A stretch of 64,000 nt of DNA from Lacunisphaera sp. (GCA_029945445.1 JAQSCO010000014.1:161755-225754), one strand, 5' to 3'; positions 38,737 to 44,832 are shown, numbered from the stretch's first letter. Notes: generated from the sequence alone by a model not told the origin. Program-made: numbers and translations.

Positions 38737-38804
38737 CCCGCTAATCACACGAATAGACACGAATTGGAACAGCGTTATTCGCGTCCATTGGCGTGATTCG
38801 CGGG
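38737..38804. repeat. 28-bp imperfect inverted repeat with CACGAAT-type arms, overlapping the symporter 3' end
   Basis: CCCGCTAATCACACGAATAGACACGAAT (38737-38764) versus reverse complement of 38777-38804, 23/28 identical. Confidence 0.85.
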
Positions 38805-40475
38805 CAAGACGGCTTGAATGATCATGCTGAGCAGCATACAGGCGCCGCAGCCGATGATGTTATACCACAGGTAGGAGATGCTCAGCGTCGCATAGAGCCC
38901 GAAGACCAGCAACTGCGACACGACCGCCGCCCAGAACACCGCGGTGCCGGACACCCACTTGACGAAGAAGGCGATGAGGAACAGCCCGAGCACGACGCCG
39001 TAGAAGATGGAGCCGATGATGTTTGTGGCCTGGATGAGGTTCTCGGCGAGGTTGCAGAAGAGGGCGAAGCCGATGGCGAAGAAGCCCCACAGCGCGGTGA
39101 ACCATTTCGAGGCGGTCACGTAATGCGCGTCCGCGGCGTCGCGCTTCACGACGTGGCGGTAGACATCCACGACGGTGGTGGAGGCGAGGGCGTTGAGTTC
39201 GCCGGCTTTGGAGGAGAAGGTGGCGGCGAAGAACACGGCGACGAGCAGCCCGATGAGCCCGTGCGGCAGGTAGCCGAGGATGAAGGTGACGAAGACGTAG
39301 TCGGAGTCGTTGGTGAGCGCCTTGGGGTCGGCAGCCTTAAGGACGGCGCGTGTTTCCTCCCGGGCGGCTTCAGTGCGGGCGTTCGCGGCCAGCGCGGCGA
39401 CGCGCTCGGTCCCGGCCGCGGCGGTGTCACCCGCATGGCGGGCGGCGAGCCAGGCGTTCACGTGGCGCTCCTTGTCGGCGTGAGCGGCGTTGAAGTCGGA
39501 CTCGAGCGCGCGGAGTTTGTCGCCGGCGCCGTGGGCGGCGGCCTGGTGCCATGCGGCCTGGTTGAAGAAGACCGGCGGGCGCTCGAACTGGTAGAACACG
39601 AAGACCAGCGCGCCGAGCAGCAGGATGAAGAACTGCATCGGGATCTTGAAGACGGCGTTGAACATCAGGCCGAGCCGGCTCTCGCGCAGCGACGCGCCGG
39701 TGAGGTAGCGCTGCACCTGCGACTGGTCGGTGCCGAAATACGAGAGCGCGAGGAACGTGCCGCCCAGCAACCCCGTCCAGACCGTGTAGCGGCGATCGGG
39801 GTTGAGGGAGAAGTCGACGGCCTCGAGCTTGTGGAAGCCGCCCGCGACCGCGAGGGCGTCGGTGAAGCCGAGGCCGGCGGGCAGCTTGGCGAGCAGGACA
39901 AAGAAGGCGGCGATCATACCGACGAAGATGACGCCGATCTGATATTTCTGCGTGAGGTTCACGGCCGCGCTGCCGCCGCTGACGGTGTAGGCGATGACGA
40001 GCAGGCCGCTGCAGACGATGGTGGCGTCGAGCCGCCAGCCCATGACGGTCGAGAGCACGATGGCCGGCGCATAGATGGTGATGCCCGCGCCGAGCCCGCG
40101 CTGGACGAGGAACAGCCCCGCGCCGAGCAGGCGGGTTTTCTGGTCGAAGCGCTTCCCGAGATACTCGTAGGCGGTGTAGACGTTCAGCCGGCGGTAGATC
40201 GGGAGGAAGACCGCGGCGATGAGGATGAGCGCCAGCGGCGCGCCGAAATAATTCTGCACGAAGCCCAGGCCGCTCTCGTAACCCTGGCCGGGCGTCGAGA
40301 GGAAGGTGATGGCGCTCGCCTGCGTGGCCATCACGGACAAGCCGATGGTCAGCCAGTGCGTGTTGCCGCCCTTCAGGTAGGAATGGAGGCTGCCGCCGCC
40401 GCGCGTCGCCCACATGCCGTAGGCCGCGATGCCGACGAGGACGCCGAGCAGGACGAGGTAGTCGAGGGCGTTCAC
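38775..40475 (-). CDS. Sodium:solute symporter (SSS) family transporter
   Basis: GTG start 40475 (MNALDYLVL) overlaps the upstream micro-ORF stop. GLSVMATQASAITF, AYEYLGKRF, YFGTDQSQVQRYL. Confidence 0.92.
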   Translation of the reverse strand: MNALDYLVLLGVLVGIAAYGMWATRGGGSLHSYLKGGNTHWLTIGLSVMATQASAITFLSTPGQGYESGLGFVQNYFGAPLALILIAAVFLPIYRRLNVYTAYEYLGKRFDQKTRLLGAGLFLVQRGLGAGITIYAPAIVLSTVMGWRLDATIVCSGLLVIAYTVSGGSAAVNLTQKYQIGVIFVGMIAAFFVLLAKLPAGLGFTDALAVAGGFHKLEAVDFSLNPDRRYTVWTGLLGGTFLALSYFGTDQSQVQRYLTGASLRESRLGLMFNAVFKIPMQFFILLLGALVFVFYQFERPPVFFNQAAWHQAAAHGAGDKLRALESDFNAAHADKERHVNAWLAARHAGDTAAAGTERVAALAANARTEAAREETRAVLKAADPKALTNDSDYVFVTFILGYLPHGLIGLLVAVFFAATFSSKAGELNALASTTVVDVYRHVVKRDAADAHYVTASKWFTALWGFFAIGFALFCNLAENLIQATNIIGSIFYGVVLGLFLIAFFVKWVSGTAVFWAAVVSQLLVFGLYATLSISYLWYNIIGCGACMLLSMIIQAVLPANHANGRE

Positions 40476-40615
40476 GAATAAAGTTTCGTCAGCACCGTGA
40501 GCAGCACGACCCACCCGACGAAAATGCCGGCCACGATCAGGTAGACGGAACGCCAGCGCGGGATGCCCGGCAGGCCGGTGGCGTCGTCTTCGGGTTCGGG
40601 TCCGGGCGAGTTCAT
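40472..40615 (-). CDS. 47-aa single-TM micro-protein coupled to the symporter
   Basis: MNSPGPEPEDDATGLPGIPRWRSVYLIVAGIFVGWVVLLTVLTKLYS*; its TGA overlaps the SSS GTG. Below the ORF-track length cutoff. Confidence 0.75.
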   Translation of the reverse strand: MNSPGPEPEDDATGLPGIPRWRSVYLIVAGIFVGWVVLLTVLTKLYS

Positions 40616-40625
40616 GCGGCTTGGG

Positions 40626-40705
40626 TTGTGGGCGGGGTGCCCTTACCCCGCGAGCTGTGGGCAGCAAACGCGAAAACCAGCGGGGTGAGGGCACCCCGCC
40701 CACAA
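40626..40705. repeat. GTRG-type REP doublet (REPIN-like)
   Basis: TTGTGGGCGGGGTGCCCTTACCCCGC (40626-40651) and inverted copy (40680-40705), 25/26 identical; each unit is GTGG plus a hairpin with a CCCT loop. Confidence 0.85.
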
Positions 40706-43199: not shown

Positions 43200-43208
43200 G
43201 ACGTGCGG

Positions 43209-43817
43209 TTATTTTTTAACGGTGTAGCTGACGGAATACTGCGTCGTCTCCCACGCCAGCTTGAGCACGGCGCCGCCGGCGGGATTTTTCTCCAGGGCCA
43301 TGACAAACTGGTCCAGCGAGGTGTTGAGCGGGTCTTTCTTCAGGTCGATGCGGGCGAGCTCGTTTGCCTCGTGGTAGGGATCGACGCCCCACTGGCCAGA
43401 CTCCTTGTTGACGACGAGTTTCGCGCTGCCGTCCGCCAGGGGCACGGTGAAGAGCGTGTAGGTGCCGGCGGGGACGACCGTGCCGCCAAGGTCGATCGCC
43501 TGCTGCGTGATGAGGGTCGTGGCCTCGTCGGAGCCGGTGCGCCAGACCTTGCCGTAAGGAACGAGGGTGCCCCAGATCTTGCGGATTTCGCCGGACTTCG
43601 GGTCCTTCGAGTAGGGCCGGCCGTAGATGAGCGTGACGCGGTTGCCGTCGACCTTGAGGCTGATGATCTCGTGCGGACTCACGCGCGCGCGCGCGGTGGC
43701 GGGAGGCGCGACGGTGGTGGCAGGCGGCGGGACCGGGGCCGCGGCGGCAGGCTGCGCGCAGAGTGAGGTAAACAAGGTGGCGCCGGCGACAGCGGCGAGA
43801 AGGACGCGGGATTTCAT
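43209..43817 (-). CDS. DUF2911 domain exported protein
   Basis: Start ATG 43817. RVSP, YGRP, LVPYGKVWRTGSDEAT, AGTYTLFT.P, QWG. Confidence 0.88.
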   Translation of the reverse strand: MKSRVLLAAVAGATLFTSLCAQPAAAAPVPPPATTVAPPATARARVSPHEIISLKVDGNRVTLIYGRPYSKDPKSGEIRKIWGTLVPYGKVWRTGSDEATTLITQQAIDLGGTVVPAGTYTLFTVPLADGSAKLVVNKESGQWGVDPYHEANELARIDLKKDPLNTSLDQFVMALEKNPAGGAVLKLAWETTQYSVSYTVKK

Positions 43818-43938
43818 GAGGGGATTCCGGGTTGCAGGGCTGGGCGGGATGCGAAGCACCGACGGGGTGACGCCGTCGGTGCAGGGAGGTTGCGGAAGCG
43901 GGCCGTCCGAAACGGACCGGCCCGCGGGGGATGGGCTG

Positions 43939-44832
43939 TTATTTCTGGCTGGCGATGAGGGCTTCGTTCAGGCGGATGTATTCCGTCTTCAGGGCGGCGG
44001 GGGCTTTATCCGCCGGGGCGTTCCGGACCAATTCGAGTGATTTCTGGGCGGCGGCGATAGCCCCGGCCTTGTCGCCCTTTTTCGCGAGCAGCAGGCCCTT
44101 GCGGTAGATCATCCAGAAGGCATCGGGCTGCTCGGCGAGACCGGCCTCCATCCACGCGAGGGCCTTGGTGAGGTCGAGGTTGTTCTCATAATAGAACATC
44201 GCGGCGGGGAAGTAGGGTTTCTTGGGTTCGGCGGAGGCCATGACGGCCTCGATCTGCGGGACGAGGATGTGCGCGACATCGACCTCGATTTTCACCGGCA
44301 CGCGGGTGTTCTCCCAGGTGAGGTAGAGCGTGGCGGCCGACTCGTTGGCGAGGTCATTGAAGGCGATGGAAAGAGTCTCAAAGGTCATGGATGTCTTGCC
44401 GGGAACGGCCTTGACGCGGGCGATGTCGTTCTTGGCGTCGTAGGAGTAGGTGCCCCACTGGCCCGGGATCTTGTTAAGGATCACAGTCCACTCGGTCTCA
44501 CCGGGAATGGAGAAGAGGGCGTAGGTGCCGGCCGGGACGTCGACGCCACCGAACTTCACGGCGGTGCTGAAGGTCATGCGGGTCGCCTGATTGGCGCCGG
44601 TGCGCCAGATCTCGCCGTAGGGCTGGAGCCCGCCGAAGATCTTCCGGCCGCGCATGCTTGGGCGGCCGTAATCGATTGTTATGTCGGTGAGGCCGACGCG
44701 TTGCTTGAGGCTGGCGGCGGGGCTGGGGGCGGGGAACTCGATCTTGGGGGCTGCCGGCTGGGCAAAAAGGCCGGTCACGAGGACCGACCCGGCAAACAAG
44801 GACAGGGCGGGACGTAGCATGCGGGGGATCAT
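43939..44832 (-). CDS. DUF2911 domain exported protein with C-terminal TPR-like helices
   Basis: Start ATG 44832. SPAASLKQRVG, YGRP...GR.IFG.L.PYG.IWRTGAN, AGTYALF, QWG. Confidence 0.88.
   Translation of the reverse strand: MIPRMLRPALSLFAGSVLVTGLFAQPAAPKIEFPAPSPAASLKQRVGLTDITIDYGRPSMRGRKIFGGLQPYGEIWRTGANQATRMTFSTAVKFGGVDVPAGTYALFSIPGETEWTVILNKIPGQWGTYSYDAKNDIARVKAVPGKTSMTFETLSIAFNDLANESAATLYLTWENTRVPVKIEVDVAHILVPQIEAVMASAEPKKPYFPAAMFYYENNLDLTKALAWMEAGLAEQPDAFWMIYRKGLLLAKKGDKAGAIAAAQKSLELVRNAPADKAPAALKTEYIRLNEALIASQK

Follow-up and report, generated by a model that had tools for sequence, protein, structure and literature searches.

A 64,000-nucleotide stretch of DNA from Lacunisphaera sp. 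(GCA_029945445.1 JAQSCO010000014.1:161755-225754; "the window" below means this whole stretch) carries a gene module that encodes a large hydrolase of the PIG-L/LmbE superfamily with an export-like N-terminus, a one-helix micro-protein, a sodium:solute symporter (SSS), and two DUF2911 proteins, and that runs into genes for bacillithiol biosynthesis (bsh). The PIG-L/micro-protein/SSS/DUF2911 grouping is conserved in many diderm phyla and is not a product of chance, and in three independent gene orders its genes are interleaved with those that make bacillithiol. The gene that follows the symporter, a 257-amino-acid (aa) open reading frame (ORF), is a remote, half-length homologue of BshC that is non-canonical and has a putative ligase role. 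From this genomic context we tentatively read the module as an envelope system that would process a bacillithiol-related glucosamine- or N-acetylglucosamine-malate (GlcN(Ac)-malate) compound outside the cytoplasm and return the product to the cell.

Gene order in the window

The module is a minus-strand run of five genes, followed by the 257-aa ORF, a BshB1-like gene, and bshA. The features are, in gene order:

43939-44832, minus strand: DUF2911 protein of 297 aa whose C-terminus is extended by a TPR-like region (PF11138, 186.9 bits)
43209-43817, minus strand: short second DUF2911 protein, 202 aa (PF11138, 126.9 bits)
40728-43199, minus strand: export-like PIG-L/LmbE (CE14) protein, 823 aa (PF02585, 54.7 bits)
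40630-40701, minus strand: intercistronic RNA hairpin in the gap between the PIG-L and micro-protein genes (minimum free energy -68.8 kcal/mol)
40472-40615, minus strand: micro-protein with a single transmembrane segment, 47 aa (conserved small ORF overlapping the SSS start)
38775-40475, minus strand: sodium:solute symporter, 566 aa (TIGR00813, 209.3 bits)
37946-38719, minus strand: mini-BshC, 257 aa (remote BshC homology by hhalign)
37127-37849, minus strand: BshB1-like PIG-L deacetylase, cytoplasmic, 240 aa (TIGR04001, 133.7 bits, below cutoff)
35882-37015, minus strand: BshA, N-acetyl-alpha-D-glucosaminyl L-malate synthase, 377 aa, the last gene of the row (TIGR03999, 381.6 bits)

An initial annotation of the window had described the five co-oriented module genes, and all of its coordinates and family calls for them are correct. 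Intergenic distances within the module are, in gene order, 121, 9, and 112 nt, followed by a 4-nt overlap: the stop of the 202-aa DUF2911 gene lies 9 nt ahead of the PIG-L start, and the TGA of the 47-aa ORF overlaps the GTG start of the symporter gene (GTGA). The gap between the symporter gene and the 257-aa ORF is 55 nt, in which a consensus scan found no terminator-like site; promoter and terminator consensus scans gave matches no commoner than in shuffles.

Conservation of the module across phyla

Conservation was assessed in 82 loci, of which 80 come from a genome-collection scan with the alignment of the 823-aa family and two were looked up directly; their six-frame ORFs were searched with the window proteins. 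More than 590 loci were available, of which the best 80 were kept; the proportions given here are therefore indicative only, and the taxonomic labels of metagenome-assembled genomes (MAGs) may include mis-binned contigs. A symporter gene lies directly downstream of the PIG-L gene on the same strand at 66 of the 76 loci with enough flank, with counts of 17/17 in Verrucomicrobiota (Opitutia and others), 4/4 in Chthoniobacterales, 4/4 in Planctomycetota, 29/38 in Bacteroidota, 2/3 in Acidobacteriota, 2/2 in Ignavibacteria, and 8/8 in others. DUF2911 genes occur within the fetched flank at 58 of the 82 loci, upstream and co-oriented in loci of the Planctomycetes-Verrucomicrobia-Chlamydiae (PVC) type, downstream and convergent in Bacteroidota. 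The initial annotation had stated that a similar PIG-L/SSS/DUF2911 grouping, with no assigned function, recurs in Bacteroidota, and the grouping is borne out by the adjacent symporter gene and by DUF2911 genes near the PIG-L gene at 23 of 39 Bacteroidota loci.

The module components belong to known superfamilies, and searches of the accessible literature turned up no work on the module itself, on what DUF2911 proteins do, or on a BshC of PVC bacteria. Clustering of neighbouring ORFs across the 82 loci revealed no further widely conserved partner, no glycoside hydrolase, and no SusC/D. The other conserved neighbours that were annotated (MPG glycosylase, Maf, HAD, CcsA, SDR, and OmpA/PD40) are unrelated housekeeping genes in lineage-specific synteny and were rejected as module partners for that reason. 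Two Phycisphaerae loci have extra sequence between the PIG-L and symporter genes (1.3 kb at L020:12436-13791 and 0.5 kb at L023:11585-12113).

Three gene orders that join the module to bsh genes

The first arrangement is of the PVC type, to which the window belongs. At every one of the 22 PVC loci whose flank is long enough, the symporter gene is directly followed by the 257-aa ORF, and in most cases the BshB1-like gene and bshA come next; the same order appears in MAGs labelled Cyanobacteria, Rokubacteria, and Gammaproteobacteria. At the two Phycisphaerae loci (L020 and L023), the 257-aa ORF is still beside the symporter gene and the genes for BshB1 and BshA are not adjacent.

In the second, Aminicenantes-type arrangement, the order at locus L041 is DUF2911, PIG-L, BshC, BshB1, BshA, SSS, and all three bsh products score above their curated cutoffs (BshC 495.8, BshB1 253.3, and BshA 531.6 bits). 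Loci of this type are L041, L083-L090, L093, and L105. At L083, the micro-protein gene directly follows the PIG-L gene, ahead of bshC-bshB1-bshA, which places all three bsh genes inside the module, between two of its own genes. When a metagenome scan was seeded with BshC, this order, or the visible part of it, was found at 10 of 80 bshC loci, all of them close relatives of the L041 BshC. The third arrangement occurs in a Myxococcales MAG (L079), in which genes for BshC (383.5 bits) and BshA (461.8 bits) are divergent and adjoin PIG-L-SSS.

A looser association was seen in Bacteroidota, in which canonical BshB1 (290-298 bits) is encoded 6-9.5 kb from the module at two loci (L037 and L078) and a partial BshB1 match lies at the edge of a third.

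A half-length BshC homologue

The initial annotation had read the genes behind the symporter gene as bshC-bshB1-bshA. The bshA assignment is verified (381.6 bits against a TIGR03999 cutoff of 273.7). For the 240-aa gene, TIGR04001 (BshB1) is the best match at 133.7 bits, below the cutoff of 182.5, and its PVC-type orthologues (L012, L021, and L044) score 127-139 bits, whereas canonical BshB1 elsewhere reaches 253-298 bits. These uniformly low scores point to a distinct BshB1-like subtype that co-varies with the 257-aa protein. The gene read as bshC is not a canonical one: the 257-aa ORF has no match to the BshC models (TIGR03998 / PF10079) and compares with a BshC length of about 530-540 aa.

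The 257-aa protein has no Pfam, NCBIfam, or PDB match; both phmmer and the family profile came back empty against PDB, BshC (4WBD) included. Its family has about 6800 homologues; none of the 120 that were listed has a functional name or a Pfam domain, and those named by their source are called "hypothetical protein". Identity is 57-85% across phyla, which makes the protein more conserved than the hydrolase.

Several lines of evidence identify this protein as a remote BshC homologue. When hhalign is used to align its family with a profile of 76 full-length BshC sequences taken from the fetched loci, the score is 34.3 (P = 9.5e-4), with residues 6-257 placed on BshC 85-397; 30 column shuffles score 11.7-23.4 and a reversed profile 13.7. 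Within the aligned region, BshC has 43 positions with a conservation of at least 90%; at 20 of them the 257-aa family has the identical residue, itself conserved at 90% or higher, and the common residues (GQQxGxF, K, DHDxxE, S, Q, Y, G, E, and Y) follow in the same order. One of 23 family members matches PF10079 (E = 5.9e-4). Finally, the 257-aa ORF takes the place of bshC ahead of BshB1-BshA. Two approaches that used pieces of BshC were set aside: alignment against short BshC fragments gave E = 0.11, and a protein search that started from 67 aa of BshC brought back nothing but fragments. The homology case rests on the full-length BshCs.

The mini-BshC, BshA, and divergent BshB1 together form a candidate bacillithiol-type pathway in Verrucomicrobiota and Planctomycetota. 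Hiras et al. 2018 (PMC6282198) placed Verrucomicrobia and Planctomycetes among groups without a documented or predicted low-molecular-weight thiol. Their screen demanded a bshC of similar length (PMC6282198), a requirement that the mini-BshC would fail.

The hydrolase

The PF02585 match covers residues 48-183 of the 823-aa protein, at 54.7 bits against a cutoff of 28.2; PF02585 corresponds to family CE14 in the established CAZy classification. The protein consists of an LmbE domain (about residues 45-290), a helical linker, tandem immunoglobulin (Ig)-like domains (about 359-600), and an alpha/beta C-terminal domain (about 610-823). At E <= 1e-3 its family has 7017 representative clusters, of which 2216 remain at E <= 1e-30, with members nearly all 800-880 aa long and matched end to end. 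The motifs AHPDDE (A52 H53 P54 D55 D56 E57) and HGHH (H170, G171, and H173) are invariant in 69 homologues of 35-78% identity. A hydrophobic N-terminal segment precedes the catalytic motif in 68 of these 69, which is consistent with export of the enzyme, a call that comes from a hydrophobic-segment scan and not from a dedicated signal-peptide predictor.

An AlphaFold2 model built on the 69-sequence alignment (pLDDT 92.9, pTM 0.92) was used in place of a single-sequence model, which was unusable (pLDDT 36). In Foldseek searches, the closest solved folds to the catalytic domain are diacetylchitobiose deacetylases (Dac) and LnmX, which fill the first 16 PDB matches at probability 1.00, and the middle part of the protein is matched as tandem Ig-like domains. 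The initial annotation had assigned the enzyme to a zinc-deacetylase superfamily, and the above-cutoff PF02585 score, intact metal-site motifs, and LmbE fold agree with this.

The best-conserved part of the protein is its C-terminal domain (residues 600-823; 40731-41402, minus strand), in which many residues, several Arg, Glu, Asp, and Trp among them, are invariant. This domain has no Pfam family and no PDB sequence match, and none of the top 50 Foldseek matches reached it. The domain may provide a second binding or catalytic site, and our impression is of a candidate class-I glutamine-amidotransferase-like alpha/beta fold.

Symporter, micro-protein, and accessory features

The symporter scores 209.3 bits against TIGR00813 (cutoff 184) and has 12 hydrophobic segments in a crude scan. 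Its closest solved SSS relatives are SMCT1 (163 bits), SMVT, NIS, and SiaT (126 bits), compared with about 81 bits for SGLT/vSGLT; greater nearness to SMCT1 and SiaT than to SGLT places it in the anion/carboxylate branch of the family. Judged by sequence similarity, a carrier of the carboxylate branch would fit a GlcN-malate-type cargo. Identity is 44-67% among symporters of Verrucomicrobiota, Planctomycetota, Bacteroidota, Acidobacteriota, Ignavibacteria, and the Myxococcales MAG. In all phyla examined, an insert of about 100 aa (residues ~300-395) of constant length and variable sequence lies between FFNP and NDxDYVF; it is apparently helical and rich in alanine and charged residues.

Its conservation marks the 47-aa ORF as a genuine gene. 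A homologous small ORF is present at 54 of 71 loci across phyla, with an ATG start, a length of 30-92 aa, and a 4-nt overlap with the symporter start. In their products, a common motif PP.F..W...Y precedes a single hydrophobic helix, and no Pfam family covers the ORF.

The hairpin at 40630-40701 fills the 112-nt gap between the PIG-L and micro-protein genes and is unique in the window (-68.8 kcal/mol, z = -6.95). In two other Opitutaceae that carry the same locus, Opitutus sp. GAS368 and Oleiharenicola lentus, this gap also holds a hairpin, unrelated in sequence (L001:12518-12595 and L002:12521-12628), and no hairpin is found at loci where the two genes abut. Neither a U-tract nor an Rfam match was found for the window hairpin. 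A kept position with unrelated sequence, and absence where the genes abut, suggest an RNA processing or stability element.

Both DUF2911 proteins match PF11138 over their full length, far above the gathering threshold of 27, and both begin with a signal-like hydrophobic segment. The 297-aa protein has a weak TPR_2 match in its C-terminal extension. The short DUF2911 gene also occurs in many PVC and Aminicenantes-type loci.

Proposed function and alternatives

In the proposed system, the periplasmic 823-aa hydrolase would cleave an amide on a GlcN(Ac)-malate compound. One candidate bond is the Cys-GlcN amide of bacillithiol, its disulfide, or its S-conjugates, which would be amidase chemistry of the Bca/Mca kind; alternatively, the enzyme would take the acetyl group off GlcNAc-malate. 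The symporter, with the micro-protein as its subunit, would import the anionic product, GlcN-malate, and cysteine would be re-added by BshC, or by the 257-aa mini-BshC in PVC bacteria. The DUF2911 proteins could serve as periplasmic accessory or binding factors. Apart from the recurrent gene orders, this proposal is favoured by the intact metal and base motifs, CE14-like fold, and almost universal export-like segment of the hydrolase (68/69), by a neighbourhood without a conserved glycoside hydrolase or SusC/D and otherwise made up of housekeeping genes, by canonical BshB1 at the same Bacteroidota loci as the module (L037 and L078), and by a mini-BshC that stays by the symporter gene at the Phycisphaerae loci without adjacent BshB1 and BshA. 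A wider claim, that diderm bacillithiol users run a periplasmic salvage cycle and also that Verrucomicrobiota and Planctomycetota make a bacillithiol-type thiol through a 257-aa BshC that defines the catalytic core, is rather doubtful when both parts are taken together.

Several observations weigh against the bacillithiol reading. The whole case for it is built from genomic context and homology. The 823-aa protein reaches only 19.7 bits against TIGR04000 (BshB2/Bca, cutoff 195), 21.7 against TIGR04001 (BshB1, cutoff 182.5), 32.8 against TIGR03446 (Mca, cutoff 277), and 29.3 against TIGR03445 (MshB, cutoff 224); with scores of about 20-33 bits, it is a member of the superfamily and none of these enzymes. 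The solved structures nearest to it in fold are chitobiose deacetylases, enzymes whose substrates are neutral sugars. The bsh link is absent or loose in Bacteroidota, which are the largest holder of the module, with no bshA or bshC within 10 kb at any of 33 Bacteroidota loci, and about 70 of the 80 metagenome-sampled bshC loci have no module nearby. No report of bacillithiol export to the periplasm was found in the searchable literature, and this reading accounts neither for DUF2911 nor for the role of the conserved C-terminal domain. The initial annotation had the module run into the bsh genes at this one locus; neighbourhood statistics extend that linkage to PVC bacteria, Aminicenantes-type loci, and the Myxococcales MAG, and do not extend it to Bacteroidota or to most bshC loci. 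The statement that module and bsh genes are unlinked elsewhere thus holds in some lineages and is contradicted in others.

General scavenging of amino sugars would give the same proteins another purpose: the exported CE14 enzyme would de-N-acetylate an abundant GlcNAc glycoside, such as a chito-oligosaccharide or a peptidoglycan fragment, and the symporter would import the nutrient, with bsh genes nearby only as fellow consumers of GlcNAc-derived precursors. Diacetylchitobiose deacetylases are indeed the best structural matches, Ig-like and NPCBM-associated domains are typical of carbohydrate-active enzymes, the module occurs in soil, sediment, and aquatic heterotrophs, and Bacteroidota bsh genes are not adjacent to it. 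We nevertheless consider this account unlikely, as no chitinase, GH20, SusC/D, or amino-sugar catabolic gene is conserved nearby at the 82 loci, the symporter groups with carboxylate/anion carriers and not with SGLT-type sugar carriers, and precursor supply hardly accounts for either the insertion of bshC-bshB1-bshA inside the module or the existence of three independent bsh-linked orders. Another possible role is maturation of the cell envelope, in which the hydrolase would modify the cell's own lipid-linked or polymeric GlcNAc-containing glycoconjugate and the symporter and micro-protein would recycle a released small acid, with no specific tie to bacillithiol. A context that resembles housekeeping genes rather than a polysaccharide-utilisation locus would suit such a role, as would a large multidomain protein with Ig-like spacers and a highly conserved extra domain; the lack of conserved envelope-biosynthesis genes nearby and the recurrent bshA/B/C association, which it leaves unexplained, make it very unlikely.

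The module and the bsh genes could also be functionally unrelated neighbours, kept together by descent or transfer, with some other compound as the module substrate. PVC-type loci could share one ancestral order that was spread by descent and transfer into the MAGs labelled Cyanobacteria, Gammaproteobacteria, and Rokubacteria, and the lack of linkage in Bacteroidota and at most bshC loci speaks for such an account. Three different orders in unrelated lineages, one of them with bsh genes between module genes, are difficult to reconcile with it, as is a mini-BshC that lies beside the symporter gene even when bshA and bshB are elsewhere, and we regard it as distinctly improbable.

Relation to known systems

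If the bacillithiol reading is correct, the module would be the bacillithiol counterpart of glutathione salvage based on gamma-glutamyl transpeptidase. In Gram-negative bacteria, this periplasmic enzyme acts outside the cytoplasm to split the thiol or conjugates of it, and a transporter then regains a building block. The proposed logic is the same, and the likeness is one of analogy only; the protein families and the thiol are unrelated.

Bca (BshB2), Mca, BshB1, and MshB share with the 823-aa enzyme the PIG-L/LmbE superfamily and the AHPDD and H..H motifs. For Bca and Mca, the chemistry proposed here, amide cleavage on a GlcN-based thiol scaffold, would also be the same, and the 823-aa gene is linked to bsh genes. 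These enzymes are cytoplasmic and about 220-290 aa long, whereas the 823-aa enzyme adds a signal-like N-terminus, Ig-like domains, and the conserved C-terminal domain. The closest solved fold to the catalytic domain is that of Dac (CE14) from Pyrococcus/Thermococcus (20% identity, Foldseek E ~3e-8, TM-score ~0.6 on the target). The archaeal Dac is cytoplasmic, about 270 aa long, and part of a chitin pathway; the 823-aa protein is predicted to be exported, has no chitinolytic context, and is partnered with a carboxylate-branch symporter.

The 257-aa ORF has the residues of BshC (TIGR03998 / PF10079) in the same order, and its gene position, at half the length: the first ~85, about 80 middle, and about 140 C-terminal residues are missing. 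SiaT, SMCT, and SMVT, the best-scoring solved relatives of the symporter, all carry carboxylated substrates; the symporter differs from them in its length-conserved insert of about 100 aa and in its dedicated, translationally coupled one-helix partner.

Should the proposal hold, it would supply a function for the 823-aa enzyme family, about 6800 mini-BshC proteins, DUF2911, and an unannotated micro-protein, and it would reveal extracytoplasmic turnover of bacillithiol, on which no report was found in the searchable literature. It would also make testable which part of BshC is essential; to our knowledge, the ligase chemistry of BshC has never been reconstituted. The redox thiol of PVC bacteria, for which none has been predicted (PMC6282198), would likewise become a testable question.

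Other features of the window

The G+C content of the 64-kb window is about 68%. In protein searches, the nearest relatives of its genes are from Opitutus, Lacunisphaera, and Oleiharenicola, and freshwater-sediment metagenomes hold DNA nearly identical to the window; on these grounds the window belongs to an Opitutaceae (Verrucomicrobiota) MAG. An Rfam scan of the window gave nothing above gathering score; a match to the sRNA SorX at 44763-44829 (minus strand; E = 0.0015, with 28.5 bits where the gathering score is 46.6) falls within the 5' end of the first DUF2911 coding sequence and was rejected as probably due to chance. Directly upstream of the module is a gene for an AraC-family regulator with a PocR sensory domain (44955-45935, minus strand), followed by a terminator-like hairpin (44932-44914). 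This regulator was excluded from the module because it is not kept beside it in relatives. Judged by translation alone, a 1583-aa ORF that is convergent with bshA (31107-35858, plus strand) reads like a fused pyruvate:ferredoxin/flavodoxin oxidoreductase, and a 708-aa ORF beyond it (28220-30346, minus strand) reads like a secretin.

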